Virus record (IMG/VR): IMGVR_UViG_3300048848_000290
Location: 1 to 53,060 of that record
Direction: 5' to 3' (one strand)
Length of the DNA: 53,060 bases
From: a virus
Lineage: Duplodnaviria > Caudoviricetes
The notes beneath the pieces were generated by a model, which was given only the letters and a program-made list of their open reading frames with translations, searched no databases and had not been told where the DNA came from. Below are positions 2,384-53,060 of this stretch, one piece after another. Position 1 is the stretch's first letter; the number at the start of each line of letters is the position of its first letter. The translations under genes were made by a program, and so were the position numbers.

Positions 2384-2536
2384 GGTGCACCTCCTCACCC
2401 AAAATGAGCGAGGAAACCCGACAACGATGTGACGACGGTGTGGCAATCCCAGATTTCCACAGGGTGTTTTGCTCAGCGTGGAAAAGCAGGGCAAATCATG
2501 ACATCGTCGGTGGGTTTAAAGAGGCAGCGATGGCAA

Positions 2537-2827
2537 ATGACGGACCCTTCAAGGCAGGCACTGATTGACCTCGTCCAGGCCCTGGCCAGGGGCCAAGCAC
2601 GAATTGATTCAGCCGCAGGCGTTCGGTGGGACGCGATCGAACTCTATTGCGATGATCCATCTCCGGAGAACGCCGCATTGGTGGTCGAACATATGATGCT
2701 CGCCATGGATCTCGCATTTAACGTGCGCCGGGGCGTGCGGAAAGCGACCTCCCGGCAGGGGAAAGGGCGAGCCTATGTCGACGAAAGCAAAGCTGATCGT
2801 ACTGGCGGCATTTCAACGGAACGATGA
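2537..2827 (+). CDS. Hypothetical protein
   Basis: ORF starting MTDPSRQALIDLVQALARGQARID; overlaps the next gene. Confidence 0.35.
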   Translation: MTDPSRQALIDLVQALARGQARIDSAAGVRWDAIELYCDDPSPENAALVVEHMMLAMDLAFNVRRGVRKATSRQGKGRAYVDESKADRTGGISTER

Positions 2828-3017
2828 TGGGGATTTGGTGCCGGCATTCGATCCGCGCCAAGTCGACACGGAAGAGCGGGCAAAGCGCGAGGCGCGGCTG
2901 ATGGCAGACCAAGATGCCGGCGTCGTCGCGTGGAGCCGGGAAGCTGACCCGGCTATCAGGGAATATGGGCCGCCGGTGATCTTGTACCAGCACGGCGATT
3001 GCCCGGACTTCGAATAA
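2775..3017 (+). CDS. Conserved small rhizobial hypothetical protein
   Basis: KLIVLAAF..NDDGDLVPAFDPRQ...GVVAWSREADP...YGPPVILYQHG motif pattern. Confidence 0.7.
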   Translation: MSTKAKLIVLAAFQRNDDGDLVPAFDPRQVDTEERAKREARLMADQDAGVVAWSREADPAIREYGPPVILYQHGDCPDFE

Positions 3018-3094
3018 TGAACCCGCTGAAAATGCATGTGGCTTTTTACGCGGCGCTGGCCATCTTTCTGTGATGTTTCACAAGGGCCTGAGTC

Positions 3095-3289
3095 TTGAGC
3101 GACGATAACGAGCTACCCAAAGCCTACACACCGAAAACCCTAGCTGAACGCTGGCTCTGTTCCGAGCGCCATGTCCGGAACCTAATCGATCGTGGCCATC
3201 TGCCTGCCTTCTGTCTCGGCGGCAAGCTCCTCCCTATTCGTAGGGAAGACGTCGAAGCGTTTGAGGCTGACGGCGGAATGAAGCAATAG
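3095..3289 (+). CDS. Excisionase-like HTH (HTH_17/MerR-type) protein
   Basis: YTPKTLAERWLCSERHVRNLIDRGHLPAF.LGGKLL.IRREDVEAFE. Confidence 0.8.
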   Translation: MSDDNELPKAYTPKTLAERWLCSERHVRNLIDRGHLPAFCLGGKLLPIRREDVEAFEADGGMKQ

Positions 3290-3300
3290 CCAGAGGACCA

Positions 3301-3981
3301 TTGATGACGCGAGCCGCTTTCCGCCAAGCCGACATCGAACGCATCATCCGGGCCACCGAGAAGACAGGGGCGGCCGTACAGGTGGATCTAAAGTCGCTTG
3401 TGGTGACCATATTTCCGGGTGCGGGGACTGCTCCAAAGCTGGTCGCGCCGACCTATCTTGCGCCTGATGGCTTAGAGAATTGGGACGACGAGCCCGTTCG
3501 AAATAATTCCGCTCGCCGTTCTTCAACCAACCCGATCGACTACCGCAGTACTAACCACGCCCCCCTGAAGGGCAAGGGAGGCTATGAGATATTCGATGAC
3601 CCAAGCCACCCGCTAAAACAGTATTACGACAAGTTGGGATTCGATCCTCGCACGATGAATAGTTCGGACATGGCGCGCCTCCGCGAGGAAGCAGACGCGA
3701 GATGGAAAGCCTCGATACCAGGGACGGAGCTTGGCAAACGTGAGAAATCCGCGTTGGGAAAAATGGTGGTAATTGGTGTGGACGTCCACGTCCTCGCGAG
3801 AGATGTGAAGGGATGCGGAGACGACACGCTCGACCGGCTAGAGGCCCGCGGGTTCATCGGTCGCAAGCAACTCATGCCCCCCGAGAAGGTTAAGGCCGGA
3901 TATAGCCAAGAGGAGATCTGGTTGCTTCAGCCCGGCTTGGAGGCCTTCCAGGCTTCGTATCTGAAACGCGAGCAACTTTAA
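3301..3981 (+). CDS. Hypothetical protein
   Basis: 226 aa ORF directly after the excisionase-like gene; GAGGA RBS. Confidence 0.6.
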   Translation: MMTRAAFRQADIERIIRATEKTGAAVQVDLKSLVVTIFPGAGTAPKLVAPTYLAPDGLENWDDEPVRNNSARRSSTNPIDYRSTNHAPLKGKGGYEIFDDPSHPLKQYYDKLGFDPRTMNSSDMARLREEADARWKASIPGTELGKREKSALGKMVVIGVDVHVLARDVKGCGDDTLDRLEARGFIGRKQLMPPEKVKAGYSQEEIWLLQPGLEAFQASYLKREQL

Positions 3982-4580: not shown

Positions 4581-4919
4581 CGCGCTTATCCCAGTGAAGC
4601 GCTTCGGCTTGCCGACTTCTTTCGGGACTCTATTTCCTCTCTATGAGCGACATCCCTCCCCCCACTGTCGCTGTTGGCGACGACAAGCGGCACCTGTTCT
4701 GCCAGATGGCGATCGAGATCCCTTTGCAGGATCTAATCCAGGCTGCAGTAAAGGCCGGATGGGACGCCGAGCGTTGCAGAACCTAAGCCGCCTGGGTGCA
4801 ATACACGGTTTGCCTTTCATAGGCGCGCGCCAGAGCCAGAGCTTGATCGAATGACTTAATTGCGCAAACGTAGGCTATATCTTACCATCAGCGGCGCTTT
4901 TGCTAAGAGAGTGACTTAG

Positions 4920-5807
4920 ATGTTAAGTACTATTAGACAAAAAGGGATCGGAGGCTTTTGGTCTGAAGGTAGATTATCTGCCTTGGAAAGGGCTTGCATA
5001 CAATCATACCTCAATTTGGGCCTCAGTTATACAATATTCTCATACGGCCCGTTGGGTAATATACCGGATGGCATTTTGGTCGAAGACGCAAATAAGATAG
5101 TTCCTCATTCGATGAGGCAGAGGATCATATATAACGGAAAACCTGACTTGTCGCACTTTTCGGATCTTTTCAGATTTGAAATGATCAGTCAGAGGGATTT
5201 GGTGTGGCATGATTTGGACGTAATGCTAATCGCAGATAAGCCGCTGCCAGAGTATAACGATATCATCGTCAGAGAGGAGCAGGGCGGGATCAATGGAGCA
5301 ATACTTTATGTCTCTGACACAAAAATTATCGATTATTGCTTAGACGAGATACATAAACTGCTGGACCGAGAGCTCACATGGGGCCAGACGGGACCGAGAT
5401 TGCTTGTGGAAGCAATCAACAAATCGGGGCGCCAGATAAACACTTATAATCATGAATATTTCTATCCAATAGAGCATTACGACATATGGAAAGCATTCCA
5501 TCCTGGATATTACTCGTTCTGCAAGGAAAAGTGTGAGTCCGCACTGACCATCCATTTATTCAACAATATTTTAAACAGTATCGGGATGTGGAAAGATATG
5601 GCACCCCCAAAAGGTTGCTTCATGGATGAGCAACTTGAAAAAATGGATCTGCTCCGGCTCTTTAGGGATACCTACCCTGAGAAAGTCATGACTTCTATTT
5701 TGGAAAATTTTCAATATCGGCAAAATGGCAAGGCGCTCGGCATTAAAACAATTATTCGGGAAATCGCACCAAGCATTTATCGTACCTACAAGCACTATCG
5801 AAGATAG
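4920..5807 (+). CDS. Glycosyltransferase, alpha-1,4-GT/GT32-like (DxD)
   Basis: SHFSDLFRF...WHDLDV (DxD)...INGAIL...WGQTGPRLL...FYPI motifs; visibly AT-rich relative to flanks. Confidence 0.8.
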   Translation: MLSTIRQKGIGGFWSEGRLSALERACIQSYLNLGLSYTIFSYGPLGNIPDGILVEDANKIVPHSMRQRIIYNGKPDLSHFSDLFRFEMISQRDLVWHDLDVMLIADKPLPEYNDIIVREEQGGINGAILYVSDTKIIDYCLDEIHKLLDRELTWGQTGPRLLVEAINKSGRQINTYNHEYFYPIEHYDIWKAFHPGYYSFCKEKCESALTIHLFNNILNSIGMWKDMAPPKGCFMDEQLEKMDLLRLFRDTYPEKVMTSILENFQYRQNGKALGIKTIIREIAPSIYRTYKHYRR

Positions 5808-6001: not shown

Positions 6002-6307
6002 AGACGATCTCCTTCCCTCGCTCGTCCATAGGATGGAAATGCATAACACCTGCAGCCTAGTCTTTGCCGAGGTCATTCTCGCCAAATTTCAATCCGCCAG
6101 CCTGCTGCGTTAAATCAGCGACGGGATGATTGCGCGGATATCCTGCGAGCTTGTTGACCGCGCGGCTACGGCCGGCAAATACTATTCGACGTTTAGCCAC
6201 TTTGGATCAGCTACGCCTTTCGCCCATCCTTCGATGTGCTGGCATGACATGGCGGAGTAATCGGTTCATCGTCACGAAAGTCATGTCTAAAGCAAAGGAG
6301 GAATGCT

Positions 6308-40575: not shown

Positions 40576-42273
40576 TCAGCCGACGACCAGCATCTGGTAT
40601 TGCGGCTTTCGCTTTGGTTCCGGGTTCCGGCTCATCACCGTGACCGCGTTGAAGAGCGCCATGGCGAGGTCGATCTTGGCGTCGCCAGCATTCTGCTTGG
40701 TGGCTCGTATGGCCGTGGCCGTCGGCTCGATCTTCAGGTTCGAGACGCACCACTGCATAAGGCCGGCACCCGAGTGGCGCAGCGTCCCGTTTGCGAGCTT
40801 CCGTTCCGTCGTCTTGATGGCGTTCATCAGCTGGTAGCCCTGCGGCACGCCGATCAACATTCCCTCTTCCTGTGTGACGCCGATCTCGTCGAGCGCCTCG
40901 ACCATCTCACCAAGGCCGGCCGGGTCGACTGCGACACAGGCAAGCAAGCCGGCGTCCTTGATCTGGGCGATGATGCCGACGATCTCCGAGATATCCGCCA
41001 GTTCGTCATCGACAATCGTCAGTTCGCCGTCGTTCTCGAACGTTTTGAGCTTCGTGGCGATGGACTGGCGCCGCTTCAGCACGCCGTGATGGCACCAGCC
41101 ATGAACCCAGCATAGCCACTCCCGCGTATTGCTGTGACGTCCAACGACCGCCAGTCCGAACAGGTCGTCGAGACCGCCCCCATCCAATCCCGGTACGATG
41201 ACGTCGCAGTTCGCAAGCAGATAGTCGAGCGTGATGATTTCGCTTGCGCGACCGTTCCAGAGGTCGGCGCCCGGCCACCTATTGGCGCGCAGGTTCATAC
41301 CGATCTCGACATTCAGGTGCTTTGCAAGGAACGTAGCGAGCGTCGTTCGATCGCCAGCCAGTTCCTTCGTCATTTCGTCCTGCAACCACTCCTGGCTGAC
41401 TGATCGACCGAGGTTTGGGTTGGTGACATAGAAGTTCGCCGGGTCTTCGTATGCCTTCGCCTTGATCATTTCGCGCGGAAACTCGTAGATCACCGGCAAG
41501 AATTTGCGGTTCTCTATGACGCCATCCCGGATGTTTCGGGCATAGTCGAGCTTGGCTTTGAACACGCCGGCCGGCGGCTCGTCGCTCTGCGTCGACAGCG
41601 TGATGATGAAACCTTCCGGCCGTGAGACCAACCCCCCTGTGGCTTCACGCAACATCGCATCCGCATTCGGCCGCTTGCCGAAGACCCAGAGCTCGTCGAT
41701 CAGTATCCGGCCGGACTTTTTCCCCGAGACCGTGTCGGTATCCGCGGCGACGACTTTCAAGACGGCATCGTTGCCGAGATGCTTAATCGTCCGAAGATGA
41801 TCCTGGACGACGAGGAACCCGCCTTCATCGGCGTTGGCATCCAGTTCCGGATCTGCGCGTACCATCGCGGCGGCCGGCTTATAGCTGTTCTGCGCGACCT
41901 CGATCGTTGGCGCCAGGATCAACAGCTCTTCATTATGCCGCCAGTTGACGATCAACGCCGTCAACATGATCGCAGCGGCGATGGTCGACTTGGTGTTCTT
42001 CTTGCTGATCAGCAGAAAGAACTCCGTAATAAGCTGCTTTCCCGTCTCTGCGTCGTAGGCGCCAAAGATGGCGGAGACGAAATCGAATACCCACTCGTCG
42101 CTCACCTCACCGAAGGTCGGTTGCCCCGGTAGATCGGTGACCTTTAGCGCTTTAAAGACGCTCAGCGCATATTCCGCCTCGCTCGAAAAAAGCGGCTGAA
42201 ACGGGATAAGGGATCGCCGCGATACGATCCGCTTGTCCCAGTCAGGACAGGCCGTCGTCCAGTGCAACGTCAC
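40576..42273 (-). CDS. terL: Terminase large subunit
   Basis: Walker A-like ISKKNTKST, Walker B ILIDE, NP.LG.S, GLDGGGLDDL nuclease motif, KIDL.MA. Confidence 0.93.
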   Translation of the reverse strand: MTLHWTTACPDWDKRIVSRRSLIPFQPLFSSEAEYALSVFKALKVTDLPGQPTFGEVSDEWVFDFVSAIFGAYDAETGKQLITEFFLLISKKNTKSTIAAAIMLTALIVNWRHNEELLILAPTIEVAQNSYKPAAAMVRADPELDANADEGGFLVVQDHLRTIKHLGNDAVLKVVAADTDTVSGKKSGRILIDELWVFGKRPNADAMLREATGGLVSRPEGFIITLSTQSDEPPAGVFKAKLDYARNIRDGVIENRKFLPVIYEFPREMIKAKAYEDPANFYVTNPNLGRSVSQEWLQDEMTKELAGDRTTLATFLAKHLNVEIGMNLRANRWPGADLWNGRASEIITLDYLLANCDVIVPGLDGGGLDDLFGLAVVGRHSNTREWLCWVHGWCHHGVLKRRQSIATKLKTFENDGELTIVDDELADISEIVGIIAQIKDAGLLACVAVDPAGLGEMVEALDEIGVTQEEGMLIGVPQGYQLMNAIKTTERKLANGTLRHSGAGLMQWCVSNLKIEPTATAIRATKQNAGDAKIDLAMALFNAVTVMSRNPEPKRKPQYQMLVVG

Positions 42274-42812
42274 TTGTTGTCGACCACCAGTTTCGGGCCA
42301 GGCCGCTGCGCGAATTTGCCACCACCCGCTGCCGCCGCAGCTGCTGCATCCTTTCGAGCAGCCTTTTTGCCTGAAGGTGCGGAAGCTTCCGACAGCGTCT
42401 TCAGCGTAGCGCTGATGTCCTTTAGCGTTTTTGCACGCTCGGCCAAGGAGATTGCCTTCAGCAAAGCCTGGCGGCGCCGGCTGTCGCTCTCCTCAGCACA
42501 GATCATGTCTTCGAGCTCACCATGCAGTGAAGTCACGGCGTCGAGCTCATCCATCATTCTGCCGGCAATGGCTTTGCCCTTTTCGGAAAGATCAGCGGGT
42601 GTTTCCACCACCTCGGTCAACCTCTCGACCCGCTCCCGTCGATCGAGATGCTTCGGCTGCGTTGCCCGGGTCCAGTTGTCAGCCTTGGCCCGCTTGTTGA
42701 TCGCCGTGTGGGAAACGCCGTACCACCGGGCGATATCGCGGACGCTCATGGCGCCTGCGCGGTAGTCCGTTTCAATGCCTTGCCAGTCGATGGGCTTATT
42801 TTCTTTTGCCAT
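42270..42812 (-). CDS. terS: Terminase small subunit
   Basis: DW..IE.DYRAG..SVR.IA..YGVSHTAINKRAK...W.R HTH; C-terminal GKKA..; coupled to terL. Confidence 0.8.
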   Translation of the reverse strand: MAKENKPIDWQGIETDYRAGAMSVRDIARWYGVSHTAINKRAKADNWTRATQPKHLDRRERVERLTEVVETPADLSEKGKAIAGRMMDELDAVTSLHGELEDMICAEESDSRRRQALLKAISLAERAKTLKDISATLKTLSEASAPSGKKAARKDAAAAAAAGGGKFAQRPGPKLVVDNK

Positions 42813-42925
42813 GGTTTCCACTCTGGTTTCCGGATGGAAACTCTCAGATGAGAAAAAATCTCTCGATGTGGGGGACGCGGGTCCGGCCGCCGAAGGGGTC
42901 TTTAGGTGGACATGCCCCCCCAGGG
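42813..42925 (-). other. Probable cos/packaging region
   Basis: Between HNH and terS; G7 run, GGACCCGCGTCCCC, GATTTTTT, and repeated GTTTCCA/GGAAACC boxes. Confidence 0.45.
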
Positions 42926-43155
42926 TCACCGTCTCGGAGGCGGTGGGCGATGCATCGGCGGGGTCGGGAACACCTTTGTCCACCCACTGCCGCATCATGC
43001 CACGGGTCGCCTCGACCGCTGTAAGGGTTCCACTGACCAGCTACGCCGCACTTGCATTCGAGCCTGACATCGTAGCTGAACAATCTGCGGAACTTGACTT
43101 GAGGGTCGGCACCACAAGGGCATGCGGCGATGACGGTGCGAGGCCGGTAGCTCAT
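42844..43155 (-). CDS. Small Cys-rich protein (Lar-like zinc ribbon), 3' end uncertain
   Basis: CPCG...ECKCG; runs into the presumed cos region. Confidence 0.35.
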   Translation of the reverse strand: MSYRPRTVIAACPCGADPQVKFRRLFSYDVRLECKCGVAGQWNPYSGRGDPWHDAAVGGQRCSRPRRCIAHRLRDGDPGGACPPKDPFGGRTRVPHIERFFLI

Positions 43156-43162
43156 ACTGCTG

Positions 43163-43531
43163 TCACCCTTCCAAGGCTGACTTGCGCTCCTCGGCCTGGA
43201 TGAGGCTGTCATGGATGCGCTTGGTTACCGTCTCGATGTTGTTGATGTCCCAGAAGAGGGCCGGGTCACCGTGGTGCGGGGTCTTGTGGTTGGCGACTGG
43301 TGCGTTCGGATCGTTGCCGGTGCCCGCACATATCTCTCCGCTTCGCTGGCAGGTGTAGAGGTCTCGCTCGAAGGCCTGGCGCCTCAACCGTTCCCACCGC
43401 GGCGTCTTGTACCAGGCTCTCCAGGGCTGGGTGTTGCGGCGGTGCTGGTCCCGAGACTTCTCTCCCTGCATCCTGCCAACCAATGGCTTGATCGTTGCGA
43501 CAAGGGGCTTGATCGTCCTCACCTTGGCCAT
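43163..43531 (-). CDS. HNH endonuclease (packaging-associated)
   Basis: WY.TPRW..LR....RD.Y.CQ...VANHK.PH.GD..LFWD..N......HDS. Confidence 0.88.
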   Translation of the reverse strand: MAKVRTIKPLVATIKPLVGRMQGEKSRDQHRRNTQPWRAWYKTPRWERLRRQAFERDLYTCQRSGEICAGTGNDPNAPVANHKTPHHGDPALFWDINNIETVTKRIHDSLIQAEERKSALEG

Positions 43532-43626
43532 TGCACCGATATCCACTGCTGACGGGTCGTTCCTTGCCGAACCTTCTCAGCCCTCCGTGGTTGTGGACGG
43601 TCGGCACGACGTTCTGGAGGAAAGAC

Positions 43627-43827
43627 ATGACAGAACCCGCACACCGCAGCGTGATCAGGGAAATCACTGCTGACGGCTATCTGATCACCACAATCGAGAA
43701 TGGGAAGGAGATCCGAACGCGGCTCTTTACCGATCGAGATGAGGCTAACACCTACCTCGTAGAGGAACGTCGCCGAATGGGCTTGCCTGATCGAGTTCGC
43801 CCCACTCGCGCGGTCCGCCGCAATTGA
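43627..43827 (+). CDS. Small hypothetical protein (moron)
   Basis: GGAGG RBS; CGAAC-N18-TT at 43568-43592. Confidence 0.6.
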   Translation: MTEPAHRSVIREITADGYLITTIENGKEIRTRLFTDRDEANTYLVEERRRMGLPDRVRPTRAVRRN

Positions 43828-43988
43828 TCGTTGGCTTCAGAGGCAGCAGCCGCAGCTTGCGTTGGCGGCTGGCCAAACGCTCTCCTGCCAAGGCCTTCTG
43901 ATCACATTAACCATCCTGACGATCGATTGAACCTCTTCGGAACAGGCGAGGTATAAGCAATTAACCGTACCGTCAGGAGGAATTGCTT

Positions 43989-44231
43989 ATGAGCTTCGTC
44001 CTACAGAAGCACCAGCAACAAGTGCTCGACGCGGTCCAAGCCTATCGGTCGGAGATTGAAGAGATCGAGGCCCACGTCCGCATGAGGGCAATGTCCAACA
44101 ATGTTAGCGATTCTGAGCTGGCCTTGCTTCGACGTCTGAAGGACGAAAAATCCCAGATCCTTTACCGCTACGAAAACTTGGTTGAGGCCTTCAAAGCCGT
44201 GCTCGGAGACATCAACCTCGCTGCGGAGTGA
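43989..44231 (+). CDS. Small coiled-coil protein (moron)
   Basis: AGGAGG RBS; GGAAC-N17-TT at 43939-43962. Confidence 0.7.
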   Translation: MSFVLQKHQQQVLDAVQAYRSEIEEIEAHVRMRAMSNNVSDSELALLRRLKDEKSQILYRYENLVEAFKAVLGDINLAAE

Positions 44232-44256
44232 GGCGCGCGGCTGCATTCAAGGCGAC

Positions 44257-44281
44257 GGAACTTTGACGCGCGAAGCCAGTT
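44257..44281 (+). promoter_or_regulatory. sigma-EcfG/RpoE2-type promoter motif
   Basis: GGAAC-N18-TT (-10 AGTT), 8 nt before ATG 44290. Confidence 0.6.
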
Positions 44282-44289
44282 AGCTGCGA

Positions 44290-44454
44290 ATGAAAAACTC
44301 AGAACGCAACGCCAGCGCCCGCACGATCAGGTTCGTCCTGGCTATATTCGGCATCGCCGTTTTGATAACGGTGATATATTTGGTCCTGCTGATGCCGAGA
44401 GAGCCCCAGGAAGGTCAGACGCCACCGCACGCCATCAATCAAAGCACTCCATGA
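44290..44454 (+). CDS. 54-aa single-TM protein, probably leaderless (not in ORF track)
   Basis: MKNSERNASARTIRFVLAIFGIAVLITVIYLVLLMPREPQ... Confidence 0.55.
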   Translation: MKNSERNASARTIRFVLAIFGIAVLITVIYLVLLMPREPQEGQTPPHAINQSTP

Positions 44455-44550
44455 ACGCGGCGAAATGGCTGAACGCCTCAGTTTGGGGGTATCCTCGAAT
44501 TGAGGAGGGGCTTCCGCCCGGAGAAATTGGCAAATTTTCGGGAAGACTGT

Positions 44551-44575
44551 TCGGGCCGCCGACCGACCCGGCTAT
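44551..44575 (-). repeat. Hairpin element copy 2
   Basis: Minus strand ATAGCCGGGTCGGTCGGCGGCCCGA; same as 46422-46445 with one extra G. Confidence 0.8.
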
Positions 44576-44787
44576 ACTGACGACCTGAATGGCCGTGAAG
44601 ACCTTGAGCATCAGGTTCGGATGTTCACCGACGTCATCAATGATATGAAAGCCAGGCAGGCTACAGCTGGCCACTGTCAGCGCGTCGCCGACTACGAGCA
44701 GATAGTCGCAGAACTCAAAGCAGCTCTCGCTGCGATGGCTCCGTCGCGTCTGCATTAAAATTCGGAAGCTTACACTCCCTTGGGGAA

Positions 44788-45030
44788 TCAGCCGAAATCG
44801 CCTTGCGAATAGTCGACGTAAATTGATCCGATGGTCTTTCCAACGCTGTCCTTCACTTCATGGAATCCGTCATCGAATTCCCCTAGTTCGACGCGATCAG
44901 CGAGAGCCCGCAAGGTATCAGCAGCCCACTTATTGTTAACTGCAACGGTCGGACCGGTGATATTCAGTTCCACATCACATTTCAGATATTGGGTGAAATC
45001 GGATTCATCGTCCACGGGCGGCCCCCTCAC
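44788..45030 (-). CDS. Small acidic hypothetical protein
   Basis: 80 aa ORF. Confidence 0.55.
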   Translation of the reverse strand: MRGPPVDDESDFTQYLKCDVELNITGPTVAVNNKWAADTLRALADRVELGEFDDGFHEVKDSVGKTIGSIYVDYSQGDFG

Positions 45031-45190
45031 TTCCTACAACCCAATGTAAAGAGAAGAACGCGCCACCTGACAAGCCAGGGGCTGTTGGCGCATTGGCCCG
45101 ATTTCCAGCCCCTCGACTCTTTCAACGCGGATGCGATCTCGGGGCTGAACAAAGCGCAGGAAATGCACCCAGATAAAATATTGGGTACTT

Positions 45191-46204
45191 CTACGCAGAT
45201 TTAATTAATCTCAGCGTGCCATCTGGCGAGCTCGCATACATCTGCAAAGCGCCCTCCGGCAAGATTCCCCTAAGCTTATCGGCATATTCTGCCGCCACCC
45301 TGGGCTCATTGGCTGGGAGTATGGAACTCAGCGCTGTTCCAACATCTGTCAAAATATAAACCGGTATTGAGGGCGTGCCGTCATTATTCGAAAGTATCTC
45401 GTTACTCCCGTAGTCGATCGCAGTATCTTGGGGGATGGCTAAAGCCACACTGCCGAACGGCGAAATCCAAAGCTTCTTTCCCGCAGTGGTGGCCGCCGAA
45501 CCAAATAGTCTAGACTGGCCTCCAAATCCGGGGTCTACAAGCAAGCCAGCACCAACCAGTTTCAGGGTTGTGTTAAAATCCAAATCCGGGTTCATCAGCG
45601 GCTTGATCAAAACATCACCTACCTGATAACGCATGAGCGTTTCGAAAATCCGCGCGGTCTCACCATCCAGTTCATCTGTTGTACGTAATACCTTCGAACT
45701 GAAAGTCCCTGGTTTCCTGATTTCACCAGCTAGAATGCGACCCCACCGTTCTCTAAGTTGCTCGGTTGTTGCAGTTTCAGCATAGCCTTCAAATCGCCCC
45801 ATAAACTCCTCGCTTACGAGTTCGGGTCCCGACGCAGCCTGCTCATCGCTGGGAACATTCTGGCGTAAGTCTTCTACGGCCGCCCCGACAACAGCATCCT
45901 TGTTGATCTGGGCCTGCGCTATTTTCTTGAAATGGTTTTCGAATGCTCGCTTGGCGAATTCGTCGTCCAGCCCCATGCGCTCTACACCGTACTTTGCAGC
46001 AGCTTCTATCAAAGCGCGCTCTCCTTCAATGTGAGCGCGCCGCCGAGAGAGGCCCCCTTCGAGTAGGACATTGCCCCAGTCGGCGACATTCCCAACAAGG
46101 CGGTCGATTGCCGCAACAGTTCTACTTTTGGCAGCGGCTTTCACGCCAGTTTCCGTTATTTCGGCGGAAACAGATGTCTCAGTGTTCAGATGATCCTCGG
46201 CCAT
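45191..46204 (-). CDS. DUF2806-domain protein (moron)
   Basis: EFM.RF..YAE....EQLRERWGRILAGEIRKPGTFS; AAGGAGG RBS before ATG 46204; AT-richer. Confidence 0.8.
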   Translation of the reverse strand: MAEDHLNTETSVSAEITETGVKAAAKSRTVAAIDRLVGNVADWGNVLLEGGLSRRRAHIEGERALIEAAAKYGVERMGLDDEFAKRAFENHFKKIAQAQINKDAVVGAAVEDLRQNVPSDEQAASGPELVSEEFMGRFEGYAETATTEQLRERWGRILAGEIRKPGTFSSKVLRTTDELDGETARIFETLMRYQVGDVLIKPLMNPDLDFNTTLKLVGAGLLVDPGFGGQSRLFGSAATTAGKKLWISPFGSVALAIPQDTAIDYGSNEILSNNDGTPSIPVYILTDVGTALSSILPANEPRVAAEYADKLRGILPEGALQMYASSPDGTLRLIKSA

Positions 46205-46421
46205 GATCGGTCCTCCTTCCGGGATACGATCACGCACTGTCCGATTCTCTGCAACCAGTGATGCTAAAATAGATTGCGTCTTGCTCAAAGGACGCGCCCA
46301 AGCTCGCCTTGTGGGCCGGGAATAAGCGGAGCCGCCGGGTGCGATACAAGAATTGCCCGATGTTCTGAGCTACTTAGGACGCTTGGGTAATCAACATCGG
46401 ACAATATTTCGGATTGGGCGC

Positions 46422-46445
46422 TCGGGCCGCGACCGACCCGGCTAT
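46422..46445 (-). repeat. Hairpin element copy 1
   Basis: Minus strand ATAGCCGGGTCGGTCGCGGCCCGA, 80 nt after the nusG-like stop. Confidence 0.8.
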
Positions 46446-46525
46446 GGAGCCGGCGAGTATTCCATCGTCCGCCAGACGCTCCGCAAATCGCGATGAGGAA
46501 TAAATACCTTCTCCTCGAAAAACAA

Positions 46526-47083
46526 TCAAGTCGCCTCTAGCTGCTTCCTTTCGAATTCCACAGGCGTCATTCTCCCGAAAAGATCGAGCAACGCTGATAT
46601 TGTGCCACGCTCCGTGACTTCCTTGATGACCGCGCTGAGGCCAATGAAACATCCATCAGTAACGCGAAATTCGCCGCCTGTAGGAAAAGCTTCCTCAAGT
46701 TTCGCAATTCGCTGCTGCTTCGAATGTTCGAGCCGGTCGAATTCGCCGTTGATCTGGTCCGTATAGATCGCCTGTATCTCGTCTGGGTGGATCGCTAGCG
46801 GCTTCTCACCCCCCAAATACCGAACCACGTGATCCCGGATCAAATGCATCTTGTCACGGCTAATCGAGACAAACGCATAGCCTGGCAGCGCAGGATACTC
46901 CCGGGATCTGATCTTATGCGTCCGATGGTTTTTCACCTCCCAGCGCCCGTAGGGAACATAGCTGCGGAAGTAGACATCATTCCGCCCGCAGATCCGCTCC
47001 ATCTCGAAGGCTGCCCCCAACTCATCGCCTGGCATCACCTGGGCAACAAACCAGAACTCGAGTCCAGCGTCGAATATCTTCAT
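46526..47083 (-). CDS. NusG-paralog transcription antiterminator (NGN + KOW)
   Basis: WFVAQV.PG.E...PALPGY.FV; KOW G..FRVTDG.F.GL...I......LDLFGR.TPVE. Confidence 0.88.
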   Translation of the reverse strand: MKIFDAGLEFWFVAQVMPGDELGAAFEMERICGRNDVYFRSYVPYGRWEVKNHRTHKIRSREYPALPGYAFVSISRDKMHLIRDHVVRYLGGEKPLAIHPDEIQAIYTDQINGEFDRLEHSKQQRIAKLEEAFPTGGEFRVTDGCFIGLSAVIKEVTERGTISALLDLFGRMTPVEFERKQLEAT

Positions 47084-47460
47084 GCCTCGCTCCCGTACCG
47101 GCGAGCGTATTCCGAGTTGACCATGTCGACGAGGATATCAACCTCGTCCCAATCCGGCGCCGACCTGACATCGCCAGCGCTCTCGACGAGCGCGTTTAGC
47201 ATCTCCAAATCGTCAACTGACAGCTCGCGCAGGATCTGGCGGGAGAACTGCACCACGGTGCTGATATAGATGTAAGCCGCCTGCCCGCGCCCAAGGTCTG
47301 CAGGGATTTCCGAATAAATTTTGGCTGCGTCTTGAACCAGCTTGGGCTGTCCGCGCTTCGGCGTTGGCTTGGCTGTCTTCATCGGCTTTCCGCAGAAATA
47401 CGGACCTTGCGGCTGCGCAGGCACCGTCCGCCTCGACGGAAATTCGAATACATTGCTCAT
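47080..47460 (-). CDS. Hypothetical protein
   Basis: MSNVFEFP.. start typical of phage early ORFs; GAGGAG RBS; coupled to nusG-like gene. Confidence 0.7.
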   Translation of the reverse strand: MSNVFEFPSRRTVPAQPQGPYFCGKPMKTAKPTPKRGQPKLVQDAAKIYSEIPADLGRGQAAYIYISTVVQFSRQILRELSVDDLEMLNALVESAGDVRSAPDWDEVDILVDMVNSEYARRYGSEA

Positions 47461-47508
47461 CTCAGTGCTCCTCGAAATTGATGATTGAAAAGAATCCTCC
47501 CTGGACGA

Positions 47509-47533
47509 GGAACCGGAGGCTCTTCGCGGATTT
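47509..47533 (+). promoter_or_regulatory. sigma-EcfG/RpoE2-type promoter motif
   Basis: GGAAC-N18-TT upstream of the DUF982 gene. Confidence 0.6.
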
Positions 47534-47570
47534 GTCTCAGCAACAAGAACAACAAGGGAGGAAAACAGAA

Positions 47571-47831
47571 ATGACCGGACCGAACGATAAATGGAGCAAA
47601 CCCGTCCGACTTGATCTCACCAACAGCGGAAGGCTGGAGGTCAGCAGTCCCTTCGAGGCGCTGATCTACCTCACGGAGGACTGGCCGGCTCACCAGGGCC
47701 TGCGTTTCATAAAGGCTCGCAGCGCTTGTCGCGGAGCCCTCGCCGGCCACAAATCGGTCGAGGAGGCCCGCGCCGAGTTTGAAGCTGCCGCTGAAGAAGC
47801 TCGACAGCAATTCCGAAAGGGCCGCCACTGA
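47571..47831 (+). CDS. DUF982-family protein (moron)
   Basis: WSKPV......VSSPFEAL..L..DWP...G....A..AC..AL.G....EEAR.EF.AAA.EA; GGAGG RBS. Confidence 0.85.
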   Translation: MTGPNDKWSKPVRLDLTNSGRLEVSSPFEALIYLTEDWPAHQGLRFIKARSACRGALAGHKSVEEARAEFEAAAEEARQQFRKGRH

Positions 47832-47892
47832 TCTCCCGGCCGGGTGCTTCCATAGTGCCCGGTACCGATGTCCCGAAAGAATAGTCGGCATA

Positions 47893-49635
47893 TCAACGCT
47901 CCTCTGATCCTAGAGTCTTGAAGCTGTCTTGGATCGCTTCGAACCGGCGATCGGCACCGACGAACTGCAACGTCACCGAGCCCGGCCGACCGCACATCGG
48001 CTGTCGTCGAATTTTCTTCGAAATGACGAATGTGACCTCCTCCTCGTAATCGCGGTAGACCACGATCCCGGCATCGGCTTTGTTGCGCCAATGGGCACTG
48101 CCGGCGAGGTCGTAGAGGCCTGGAACCGGCTCCTTGCCTTCACCATGGGCCTTCAGCTTCGTTGGGTGGATGATCATCCAGATCGTGCAGCCGTGGAGCT
48201 TCGCAAACAGCTTGCATTTCGAGATGAGCTGCGAAATGAACTCGGTCTCGGTAAGCTTGTCGGGACGAGACGCCTCGATTTCGTTGTACGGATCGATCAC
48301 CAGGTTCGTCACGCCATAGCGAAGGACTGCAGCCCGACCTCGTTCCAACAACCAGTCGATCGACGGCGTATGATCCACCGCGCCGAGCAGGAATATCCGC
48401 TCGTTTAGCCAGGCCATTGCCGTCATCATTTCCGCCTCGGACATTCGAGGCGTGGGACCGTCGAAGAACGGTTGCCCACACCAGATCTCGCAGAGATCGG
48501 CGATATGGTTCGCCTCTCCAGTCTCCGGTGAGAAGAATCCCCACTTTTCGTTGCGGAGCCTCGCGGTCTGGACCGCAACCTGATCCACCCAACGAGATTT
48601 GCCGTGGTTCGGAATACCCGTCACCGCAATGAATTGGCCGGGGATATACCTGAACGCCTTGTCCATCTCGGGGAAGCCGGTAGACAGTGGCTTTGGTCCA
48701 TTTCCGTTGTAGAGATCGTGCACATCGATCGCGAAATCTTCGATGTCATGGAGGCCTTCGATCGGCCACGGCTCGGCATTCTCGACGCATTTCCGCAGAG
48801 CCTCTCGCCCAAGGTGGACGAGGCAGTCATTGGCGTCCTTGCAGCCGGCAGGCATCTTCACCCGATAGCTGCGGTCCTTGCCGACGCGGCGCGCTATCTC
48901 CTGTGCCAGCGCCTCGCCAGGACCGTCCATGTCTGAGGCGATCAGCACACGCCGAACCTTTAGGATCAGCTCCCAATGGGTTCCGAAGGGCTCATACCGC
49001 TTTTCACTTGTTTCTGGTCCGGAGGGAGCGCCGTTCGGCAGCGACACGATGTGATGAAAGCCGGCTTCAGCCATCGACATCACGTCGATTTCGCCTTCGC
49101 AGATGATCAGATCCTCGCCGGCACCGATGGTGTCCGCATTGAAGAAAACCGGCTCAGGGTCCTTCTCCTGCCGAAACATCTTGTTCGCCGTGCGGTACTT
49201 CACGTTGCGCAGCTCGCCGTCCCACTCATACGGAAACGCGATGCAATCCTCTTCCTTCTCGCTTTGCGGAAACCACTGCCGGCTCCTGTAGACGCCAAAC
49301 CTCGTGACCGTGTCGCGCGAAATCCCCCGCTTCTCGAACCAGGCGTGCAGGGTGTCGGGTCGCTGCGGTGCCGGATCGCGCTGCGGCTTTCGATAGGTCC
49401 GACGCTCGCGGACCGGCCGGTATTCCTGTCCGCCGGCACCGCCCGTGAAGTTGCAGTGGTGGCAGTTCCAAACTGCGCTTCCATCCGTCTTGACCGTCAC
49501 TGACAGGCAAGGATCATTCTTCTTGCGCCTCGACGAGGAGCAGTTCGGGCACAGAGTCTTATGGTTTCCCGGCTTTGCGTCACGCAGCCGGATATGATGT
49601 TCAGCAAGGGCGGCGAAGGTGTCGGTCATGGTCAC
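47893..49635 (-). CDS. Twinkle/T7 gp4-like bifunctional primase-helicase
   Basis: Zn finger CPNC...CHHC; TOPRIM IICEGEID, DMD, KDAND; Walker A TGIPNHGKS; LVIDPYNE; HP; LYDLAGSAHW.NKAD. Confidence 0.92.
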   Translation of the reverse strand: MTMTDTFAALAEHHIRLRDAKPGNHKTLCPNCSSSRRKKNDPCLSVTVKTDGSAVWNCHHCNFTGGAGGQEYRPVRERRTYRKPQRDPAPQRPDTLHAWFEKRGISRDTVTRFGVYRSRQWFPQSEKEEDCIAFPYEWDGELRNVKYRTANKMFRQEKDPEPVFFNADTIGAGEDLIICEGEIDVMSMAEAGFHHIVSLPNGAPSGPETSEKRYEPFGTHWELILKVRRVLIASDMDGPGEALAQEIARRVGKDRSYRVKMPAGCKDANDCLVHLGREALRKCVENAEPWPIEGLHDIEDFAIDVHDLYNGNGPKPLSTGFPEMDKAFRYIPGQFIAVTGIPNHGKSRWVDQVAVQTARLRNEKWGFFSPETGEANHIADLCEIWCGQPFFDGPTPRMSEAEMMTAMAWLNERIFLLGAVDHTPSIDWLLERGRAAVLRYGVTNLVIDPYNEIEASRPDKLTETEFISQLISKCKLFAKLHGCTIWMIIHPTKLKAHGEGKEPVPGLYDLAGSAHWRNKADAGIVVYRDYEEEVTFVISKKIRRQPMCGRPGSVTLQFVGADRRFEAIQDSFKTLGSEER

Positions 49636-51866: not shown

Positions 51867-53060
51867 TCACCCTTTCACCAATTGCATCACCTGACCGCCT
51901 TGGCCGGTGACGTGTTGCGCCCATCGCACCATCAGCTTGCGGCGCTGTTCCAAGAAATCTGTTCGTCTGTAGGCTCGCTCGACAGTGCCGCCGACCACAT
52001 GCCCGAGAACAGTCTCGGCAATGTCGTGAGAAGTGTCGGTCGTTTCCGCGATCCAGTCGCGAAGGCTCGATCTGAAGCCATGCGGGCGAGCTGTGAGCTT
52101 CGCCCGCTCCATCAGCCGGCTCATTGTCATATCGGACACCACGCCCCGCTTGACGCTGGGGAAAAGGTATCCGTCGCGAGCAAGCTTACGCGCCTGCTTG
52201 ATAATCTCCAGCGCCTCGTCAGATAGGGGCACCCGGAAGTCAGGCGTCTTGTCCTTGCGGCCTTTCATGGCCTCGCCGGGGACGGTCCAGACATCGCCGT
52301 CGATCTGGTCCTCACGAATGAACCGTAGAGGGGCCGAGCGGACGCCAGTAAGGATTAGGAGCCTAAGCGCCAGGTGCGTTACCGTGCCGTCGTTTAGGGA
52401 AAGATAGAAGGCTGGAACCTCAGACCATGGCATGGCGGGAATGTTGCCCGCCTTGTGGCGCTGTCGGCCGAGCAGGGCGCGAGCTTTTTCGGTCGCCTGA
52501 ATATCAACGTCGAGCCCGAGAGCCGCGGCATGCTTGAAGCAGATGCCGAGCCGATTGATAGCCTTCTTCGCCGTCTCCGCCTTGCTGTGCCAGATCGGCG
52601 CCAGCGCATCCCGGATATCGGTCTGGTTGATGTCGGCGATCGGTATCTTACCGAGCTTGGGGAGAATGTGCAGCTCCAGCGGGCTGAACCATCGGCCGGC
52701 GACGCCATCACCTTTCAGCTCGGCCTTGCGGCTTTCGAAGGCATCTTTCGCGATCTCCTTCAGAAGGTGAAGATTTCGGGCAGCTTCTCTCCGGAGGCGA
52801 TCACGCTCTTTGATCGGGTCAAGATTTTGCCGCGCGACAGCCCGCCATTTTGCGGCTTCATCTCGGATCTCTTTCAGAGTAACCTCTGATGCGGAGCCAA
52901 GCCCCATCTCGCGGCGCCGGCCGTGAACGGTGATCCGCAGCACCCACTGACCGCCTCCGTCTTCGCGTTTATGAAGCCAAAGGCCACCGCCGTCAGAGTA
53001 CTTTCCGGGGCCAGAATTTTTGATGCTGAGGGCTGTCAGCTTGTTTAATTCCCGCCCCAT
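51867..53060 (-). CDS. int: P4-family tyrosine integrase with arm-binding domain
   Basis: GKYSDGGGL.L...W.LR...G.RREMGLG; LTGVRS (R), MKG (K), PHGFRSS (HxxR), LGH, AY. Confidence 0.95.
   Translation of the reverse strand: MGRELNKLTALSIKNSGPGKYSDGGGLWLHKREDGGGQWVLRITVHGRRREMGLGSASEVTLKEIRDEAAKWRAVARQNLDPIKERDRLRREAARNLHLLKEIAKDAFESRKAELKGDGVAGRWFSPLELHILPKLGKIPIADINQTDIRDALAPIWHSKAETAKKAINRLGICFKHAAALGLDVDIQATEKARALLGRQRHKAGNIPAMPWSEVPAFYLSLNDGTVTHLALRLLILTGVRSAPLRFIREDQIDGDVWTVPGEAMKGRKDKTPDFRVPLSDEALEIIKQARKLARDGYLFPSVKRGVVSDMTMSRLMERAKLTARPHGFRSSLRDWIAETTDTSHDIAETVLGHVVGGTVERAYRRTDFLEQRRKLMVRWAQHVTGQGGQVMQLVKG

Follow-up and report, generated by a model that had tools for sequence, protein, structure and literature searches.

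Why does a phage genome carry the same small hairpin twice on one strand, once directly behind a gene for a NusG paralog and once shortly before its packaging genes? The question is raised by a provirus of the Caudoviricetes, IMG/VR record IMGVR_UViG_3300048848_000290, which is complete at 53,060 nucleotides (nt) and is hereafter called the window. Its hairpin-forming repeat lies on the minus strand at 46422..46445 (copy A) and at 44551..44575 (copy B). A preliminary description of this DNA had taken the two copies for a pair of antiterminator loading sites or, failing that, for the scar of a moron insertion. The reading that we favour, with a probability of about 0.45, is of a cis element linked to nusG and placed at the early/late boundary, at which RNA polymerase would be engaged by the paralog. 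The duplication, judged from sequence comparisons, is most likely historical, copy B being a by-product of cassette recombination and not a second working site.

The 16-mer ATAGCCGGGTCGGTCG has exactly two exact sites in the window, both on the minus strand (46445..46430 and 44575..44560). Taken alone this is weak evidence, since two or more matches with up to three mismatches were obtained in 15 of 100 shuffled sequences. The stem pattern CCGGGTCG-N3-7-CGGCCCG likewise has exactly two sites (46423-46441 and 44552-44571) and was absent from all 100 shuffles. Copies A (24 nt) and B (25 nt) differ only by an extra G in the loop of B, and are directly oriented with a start-to-start distance of 1870 nt. 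When the 340 nt around each copy were aligned pairwise, the likeness did not reach past the repeat and a tail of some 23 nt (CCGAAATATTG versus CCGAAAATTTG), where it is looser and only about half of the 23 positions agree. The tail of copy A (46395..46419, minus strand, CCCAATCCGAAATATTG-type) is common to relatives with different cargo, with a mean pairwise identity of 0.64, while that of copy B (44525..44550, minus strand, CTTCCCGAAAATTTGCC) was assigned by alignment to the type of a related phage, L006. A covariance model built from hairpin and tail found these two sites only in the 53-kb record (the next best had an E value of 2), with no further copies in the window and none in eight distant loci.

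Folded as nusG-sense RNA, both copies form a 7-bp stem (-16.3 and -13.4 kcal/mol) closed by a loop of 4 or 5 nt, which is GUCG in copy A (stem 46441..46423) and GUCGG in copy B. The plus-strand folds of both copies are weaker or different. Since the stem carries a U-G pair and a series of G-C, G-U and A-U pairs, the hairpin pairs only on the nusG-sense strand. Among eight instances compared, one pair is G-C in four, G-U in three and A-U in one, the U-G pair is present in all eight, and 98.2% of the cells in the hairpin alignment pair; the covariation support for the repeat hairpin appears suggestive only. Pattern searches and RNA folding thus bear out the preliminary description as to the positions, strand and single loop indel of the repeat, the 7-bp stem with its loop of 4-5 nt and the start of copy A 80 nt after the nusG-like stop codon (46528-46526). 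Its statement that similar tails follow both copies holds as well, with agreement at only about half of the positions.

The surroundings of copy A are more conserved than the gene before them. Counting the near-identical contig L003 together with the window, the close clade has five distinct members, and in all five the DNA behind the nusG stop codon can be aligned for about 130 nt, regardless of what follows. Within this stretch, 57 nt and the 24-nt copy A make up a nearly invariant non-coding block (46420..46502, minus strand), in which 78 of 83 columns are invariant and the mean pairwise identity is 0.97 in the five-prophage alignment; the corresponding values for the adjoining nusG coding sequence are 366 of 555 columns and 0.83. 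RNAalifold predicts a Y-shaped consensus composed of a hairpin that directly follows the stop codon, a bulged one of 11 bp (46446..46482, minus strand) with a GGCGGACGATGG-type sequence in its loop, the repeat hairpin, and a 5-bp helix between the tail and the start of the block. Since all pairs of this consensus but one are invariant, its covariation support comes from that one pair only. The 11-bp hairpin, whose pairs are all invariant, has a single-sequence fold of -14.8 kcal/mol (z -0.96). A scan of 43000-48000 against Rfam 15 on both strands gave no match at E <= 1 to nut/boxB, put, EAR or any other family.

The relatives were collected by searching with the NusG-like protein. Among viral contigs it matched L003 (99% identity), L004, L005 and L006 (75-76%) and two more at 30-33%. 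Among genomes represented by one per species, the sole close relative was L026 (75%), a degraded copy from a root isolate of Neorhizobium; 13 further loci from Phyllobacterium, Mesorhizobium, Aquamicrobium and two other alphaproteobacterial records had best matched segments of 31-68%, which correspond to 31-35% over the full length, the higher values stemming from fragments of 23-80 residues. A metagenome protein scan added two distant loci, and a phage collection yielded no DNA matches and only protein matches of at most 32% identity, several of which were host NusG. Behind the nusG-like gene, the hairpin is nearly invariant in all five distinct close relatives, whatever follows downstream. 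In three of five nusG clade pairs, the downstream non-coding DNA is as conserved as the coding sequence.

The exact 16-mer was found at 17 loci in IMG/VR: three are close relatives, 13 extend no further than 18 nt, and the last is an unrelated phage, L025. There, 23 of the 24 positions of the hairpin sequence recur (2493-2516, minus strand), 125 nt downstream of a 168-amino-acid (aa) open reading frame (ORF) for a NusG paralog (2642-3148, minus strand) and in the same orientation. This ORF belongs to the same PHROG 6386 (3.5e-30), matches Pfam NusG (3e-13) and is 28% identical to the window protein over 111 residues. The flanks of the two loci cannot be aligned, except for a GATTTGCGG box and a CCAATCC(A)GAAAT motif, which occur in different order. 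A chance origin of the L025 match is not credible. With a 23/24 match behind a paralog only 28% identical, the comparison supports a link of the hairpin to nusG paralogs of phages that have diverged deeply. A degenerate 20-mer brought up four new loci, all inside long ORFs encoding IGRG, and these were taken as chance matches.

The gene in front of copy A (46526..47083, minus strand) encodes a 185-aa protein which matches Pfam NusG in its NGN domain (2.3e-7, 31.7 bits versus a cut-off of 22.2) and PHROG 6386, 'transcription antiterminator' (1.3e-24), and which aligns with Escherichia coli NusG over residues 6-183 (E 5.5e-9). Its AlphaFold2 (AF2) model, built from 12 sequences (pLDDT 87.8), shows an NGN domain, a linker helix and a C-terminal beta-barrel KOW domain, and the top matches in a fold search with this model were NusG chains. 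An NGN domain followed by a KOW domain places the protein in the NusG/Spt5 family. Its scores are far under the NCBIfam cut-offs for NusG, UpxY, LoaP and RfaH, which, together with the NusG fold, points to a separate phage-borne NusG paralog.

The same order of nusG, element, opposite-strand accessory gene(s) and terminase/structural genes was found in the window, L004, L005, L006, L026 and the L025 phage. In the window, the packaging and structural genes begin on the nusG strand at 40576..43546 with an HNH endonuclease (PHROG match 4.7e-22), the small terminase (7e-31) and a 565-aa ORF (42273..40576) labelled as the large terminase by size and position only. In L025, a convergent 211-aa membrane-protein gene faces the hairpin and is followed by about 2.5 kb of opposite-strand small genes and then, on the nusG strand, by ORFs of 478 and 694 aa which are terminase/portal-like by position only. 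The start of the last opposite-strand gene and that of the small terminase gene, terS, are only 30-85 nt apart. Pfam and PHROG matches and the ORF map agree with the gene context given in the preliminary description (nusG-like gene, DUF2806 gene, packaging genes), and the placing of nusG ahead of the packaging genes holds in every relative examined.

These observations can be joined as follows. A non-coding element of about 130 nt, whose 3' part is the hairpin, would travel with the phage NusG paralog and mark the boundary that separates the replication and regulator genes from the region ahead of the packaging genes. It would act on the nusG-sense strand, most likely as nascent RNA and possibly together with DNA sequence in the preceding 57 nt, the hairpin being the RNA part of the site and the 57-nt block its lineage-specific part. 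RNA polymerase coming from the nusG operon would pause at the element and be modified by the paralog, and the modified polymerase would then cross 1-2.5 kb of oppositely oriented accessory genes, whose RNA is antisense and untranslated on this strand, to reach the terminase and structural genes; the whole would amount to a late switch resembling Q/qut or ops. We infer four steps of this course: that the element is transcribed through, that polymerase pauses there, that the paralog is loaded and that read-through follows. Antisense untranslated RNA is prone to Rho, and NusG paralogs such as RfaH protect against it. The element is read as the cis site of the paralog because a polymerase starting upstream of it would have to cross such Rho-prone RNA and because published paralogs use leader elements with hairpins.

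A wider proposal, which we put forward only tentatively and regard as rather doubtful, is that alphaproteobacterial temperate phages run their late switch with a NusG-fold antiterminator and not with one of the Q type. A composite site of about 130 nt directly behind the paralog gene (upstream box, sense-strand RNA hairpin and tail) would convert polymerase for the crossing of 1-2.5 kb, the 24-nt hairpin would be a portable pause module read by the host machinery, and the paralog-specific part would reside in the flanking boxes, with the hairpin doubling as a preferred crossover point for cassettes. The notion of a portable, host-read module comes from the 24-nt hairpin being nearly unchanged among paralogs only 28% identical.

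Several results weigh against a loading site of the paralog. i) The structural signal is slight: the covariation rests on one pair and is not significant, its score being reached by 260 of 500 shuffles; the central stem pair is broken in two of nine instances (copy B of L003 and L025), being a G-G mismatch in L025, where the best fold picks other partners; and the element as a whole folds no more stably than its shuffles do (z 0.01, 0.53 and -0.12). ii) The distribution is uneven: no element matches were found in the relatives at 30-35% identity (L007, L008, L028-L031, L033 and L071), which have other downstream sequences, nor does L085, whose paralog is 45% identical to that of L025, have the 24-mer, though other boxes are in common. 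The hairpin is thus patchy even among paralogs, and the tie between element and phage nusG homologues proposed in the preliminary description stands for the five close relatives and L025 and fails for these loci. iii) A near-identical hairpin behind paralogs that are 28% identical argues against paralog-specific recognition of the hairpin itself, and speaks for a host-read or recombination-related role. iv) The AF2 model has an ordinary beta-barrel KOW domain and no sign of an RfaH-like autoinhibition that would demand a loading site. v) A scan of both strands of 43000-47500 gave no site resembling a sigma-70 promoter, and L004 (about 4810-4895) and L006 (about 6120-6177) conserve 60-85 nt before terS with a weak promoter-like GTTGAG, about 15 nt and CTATTT (by eye), which could be an independent start of the late operon. 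vi) The cassettes of the window and of L026 are independent of each other, and each has its end precisely at the foot of a hairpin that is intact; a downstream copy could therefore be selected for in front of convergent genes. vii) A search of sequencing runs listed three DNA entries and no RNA entry. As to the distant relatives, the scan rule gave a promoter-like site just after nusG in one of four loci (L030), those of the others being by eye only.

The main rival, which we consider unlikely all the same, is that the hairpin forms an RNA 3' end or insulator: it would close nusG-strand transcription units where they meet opposite genes, by blocking 3' exonucleases or as a non-canonical stop, and would have nothing to do with loading of the paralog. 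The positions speak for it, as all intact instances come after a coding unit of the same strand, at its 3' end: after nusG in window copy A, L004, L005, L006, the first copy of L026 and L025, after the DUF2806 gene and the 80-aa ORF in window copy B, and 2 nt past the stop codon of the 181-aa cargo gene in the second copy of L026. The next gene is convergent in window copy B, L005, L006, the second copy of L026 and L025, and the stability of the stem in nusG sense only fits as well. However, an intrinsic terminator in the usual sense had to be rejected, because none of the nine instances has a U tract after the stem (by eye) and the terminator scan included neither copy. The cassette moreover owns a terminator-like site about 190 nt before copy B. 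A generic stabiliser needs no 23/24 identity between phages with 28%-identical NusG proteins, and the invariant 57 nt before copy A would be left unexplained.

The origin of the second copy is best seen from what lies between the two. The cassette (44576..46394, minus strand) consists of the DUF2806 gene (46288..45191, Pfam 9.5e-12), the 80-aa ORF (45030..44788, from the ORF map), the terminator-like site (44779..44764, from the terminator scan) and about 190 nt without assignment. It was found only in the near-identical L003, and a search with the DUF2806 protein matched that contig alone. The cargo behind the element differs among relatives: a 181-aa membrane protein in L004 and L026, an opposite-strand 304-aa gene in L005, and directly an opposite-strand small membrane-protein gene in L006. 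PADLOC, run on the cargo, gave nothing but a weak JetA-like match (1.7e-4) for that of L026. L006 has the appearance of an empty site, with a single hairpin whose left flank is as in copy A and whose right side aligns to window 44575-44290, i.e. to the right flank of copy B. The first opposite-strand accessory gene of the window, a convergent small membrane-protein gene (44290..44454, plus strand), is 63% identical to its L006 homologue over 54 aa without gaps and has the same place relative to the L006 hairpin. L026 carries two copies (4640-4661 and 5336-5357) around a different cassette, and L004 has the L026-type cargo but no second copy. The window combines an L004/L026-type tail at copy A with an L006-type tail at copy B, so that two lineages seem to have been joined immediately 5' of the resident hairpin.

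Copy B also differs from copy A in constraint. It is without the 57-nt block that precedes copy A, and between the window and L003, which are 97% identical, there are no differences in 46599-45500 and seven within 26 nt at 44567..44542. One of these changes breaks the central pair of copy B in L003, where the stem is absent from the best fold, and single-base indels occur just downstream of copy B, at 44542 and 44505. As it is decayed in L003 and has no 57-nt block, copy B seems free of the constraint that holds copy A and may be evolving freely. It could have arisen when the DUF2806 cassette joined by recombination at the foot of a resident hairpin, or it could mark a cassette which the relatives have lost; equally, L006 may have lost its cassette by recombination between two copies. 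The insertion scar that the preliminary description had named as its fallback is what the L006, L004 and L003 evidence fits.

From the same evidence one might suppose that the hairpin is itself a recombination site, at which hairpin-targeted or site-specific exchange, loosely attC-like, swaps the cassettes behind nusG and leaves direct repeats as footprints. Different cargo behind one element in different phages, two independent cassettes between direct copies with the right-hand junction at the stem foot, the empty site of L006, the 24-mer in the otherwise unalignable context of L025 and a substitution burst exactly at copy B would all suit it. We nevertheless hold it to be improbable. No recombinase gene lies beside the element in any ORF list examined, L004 holds the L026 cassette without a second copy, there are only one or two copies per phage record, and the tails look like diverged orthologues (L004 type and L006 type), which fits ordinary homologous and illegitimate recombination of two lineages. 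An integron attC site proper was rejected on the ORF lists of six phages, in which no recombinase-like ORF accompanies the element, and on the number of copies, at most two per record.

Very improbable, too, is the literal form of the original proposal, that both copies are working sites at which the NusG paralog is loaded before the moron and re-loaded after it. Copy B is intact in the window, the second copy of L026 is intact and canonical, and both copies lie on the nusG strand ahead of the packaging genes. However, this idea of paired sites is not supported by the comparison: copy B lacks the 57-nt block, L004 has no second copy, the L006 site is empty, one copy suffices in L005, L006 and L025, and copy B of L003 has a broken stem and seven changes over 26 nt, against none in copy A or in the interior of the cassette. 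Hardly tenable, finally, is that the conserved block is coding, either as a 27-codon micro-ORF in the nusG frame after the TGA or as an opposite-strand ORF. An in-frame, indel-free ORF does run from the nusG stop to a TAG at the repeat start, with ATG (L004, L006 and L026) or TTG (window) as start. L005, however, has ATC at the start position, and in place of the closing TAG there is TTG in L004 and AAG in L026, so that the extensions differ. In L026, a 1-nt indel behind the hairpin puts every frame of either strand out of register. The plus-strand ORF ends at a TAA in the window and stays open in relatives, third codon positions are as invariant as the others (78 of 83 columns), and copy B has the single-base indels against L003 just downstream.

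A host repeat of the repetitive extragenic palindrome (REP) kind was also considered and rejected. The 6.7-Mb Neorhizobium genome contains two copies, both in the prophage, and two Phyllobacterium genomes contain none. A family-wide genome search gave a strong match in one of 400 scored genomes (Neorhizobium), the other 24 matches being pieces of 19-55 nt with E >1e-4, and an order-wide search gave a match in one of 401 genomes, the same Neorhizobium.

The locus may be compared with several known systems. Late genes of lambdoid phages are controlled by antitermination through Q, with qut, PR' and tR', and tRNA genes occur behind Q. The present locus resembles lambda Q/qut in that i) the regulator gene stands directly before the candidate cis site at the early/late boundary, ii) the DNA behind the regulator is a hot spot for accessory genes, with a tRNA gene at this place in the distant relative L071, and iii) the strand that carries the regulator gene also bears the packaging and structural genes, a long way downstream. 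It differs in that the regulator has a NusG fold, no promoter is recognisable at the site and the intervening genes are mostly on the opposite strand. With RfaH and ops, it shares a specialised NusG paralog that would act on a long, horizontally acquired gene set. The window protein, however, scores 24.7 bits versus 144.5 for TIGR01955 and 15.9 versus 124 for NF006534, and its C-terminal domain is a beta barrel in the AF2 model, a prediction from 12 sequences which leaves fold switching possible. The ops consensus, which we take to be GGCGGTAGnnTG, is best approached by GGCGGACGATGG (46473..46462), which agrees at 7 of 12 positions and so does not qualify as ops; sequences within two mismatches of GGCGGACGATGG number 13 in the window versus 9.7 in shuffles, which is no excess. 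A further difference is that the element here has one or two hairpins, whereas ops is described in a passage of PMC11685472 as working without a pause hairpin.

For LoaP, the sections of PMC12691694 drawn upon here describe a small RNA hairpin in the dfn leader that is essential for terminator suppression, is of the UNCG type and lies upstream of a NusA-dependent intrinsic terminator. The hairpin behind the phage nusG is likewise small, located on the sense strand and conserved in sequence, but its loops are GUCG and GUCGG, no canonical terminator follows directly downstream, and the protein reaches 25.9 bits against the cut-off of 125 for NF033641. UpxY, according to parts of PMC11685472, recognises the paused polymerase via non-template and upstream duplex DNA, aided by pause hairpins in the nascent RNA, and in the Bacteroides capsule operons the 5' leader, between a known promoter and the paralog gene, contains the opsX site. 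Common to UpxY/opsX and the phage locus as read here are a multipartite site, a paralog encoded beside its own site and a leader sequence particular to each paralog lineage. In the phages, the site lies behind the paralog gene instead, and the protein scores 28.5 bits against the cut-off of 100 for NF033644. The layout is thus like that of lambda Q/qut and the principle like that of RfaH-ops, the LoaP hairpin and UpxY-opsX, and tests of membership placed the locus in none of these systems.

Moron boundaries are known in mosaic phage genomes, and the locus resembles them in having an accessory unit with its own terminator-like site between conserved modules, a duplicated junction sequence and an empty site in a relative. 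It differs in that the duplicated piece is a specific 24-nt hairpin which also occurs in an unrelated phage behind another NusG paralog, and for that reason we take the hairpin to be more than a random junction.

RfaH, LoaP and UpxY are known from chromosomes and plasmids, each being recruited in its own way. Our literature searches turned up no study of a phage-encoded NusG paralog together with its cis site. The phage-related passages of the NusG review PMC7819879, as far as its consulted portion goes, concern lambda N and Rho. In the phage databases, the only label is 'transcription antiterminator' (PHROG 6386). If the favoured reading is true, a third protein scaffold beside N and Q would serve late-gene antitermination in phages, and the hot spot for accessory genes behind nusG would be explained. 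If it is wrong, the locus still illustrates cleanly how a conserved hairpin at a junction shapes the exchange of cassettes in mosaic phages. With a candidate site of some 130 nt, variants of it in nature, a relative whose site is empty, a copy that has decayed and a host in culture (the Neorhizobium root isolate with its remnant), the question can be tested directly.

Some minor features of the region were noted. A 126-aa ORF of no known family (47080-47460, minus strand) overlaps the nusG start by ATGA and is kept in close relatives, e.g. at 3618..4004 in L026; it may encode a partner of the NusG paralog. The nusG-like gene of the Neorhizobium prophage (L026 4001-4556) is split into several short ORFs, with a flagellin gene 3 kb off; this has the look of a remnant in decay, in which both copies of the hairpin persist. 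Between copy A and the DUF2806 gene there is a 13-nt inverted repeat (46352-46364/46393-46405, 92% complementary, 28 nt apart), one arm of which is the tail of copy A. On the nusG strand a U-rich run comes after this inverted repeat, which may act as a stop before the DUF2806 gene or form a second structure. Comparison of the window with L003 revealed 36 differences in 43800-43899 and 25 in 43300-43499, versus 7 in 2 kb of the cassette, and these two stretches are read as local mosaic replacements beside the HNH gene. A CGGAYGA motif is present in the sense strand, and not in the antisense strand, of the first 100 nt past the nusG stop in the window clade (46470..46464), L008/L071, L029 and L030, and the likeness of L008 to the window extends around it to CGGACGA(C)TGGA; having been chosen post hoc and representing about three independent lineages, this motif is a lead only. 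In L071, a tRNA-Ser(tga) gene (3657-3731, plus strand) lies 138 nt downstream of the distant nusG paralog on the same strand, with a consensus-like promoter sequence, identified by eye, ahead of it.

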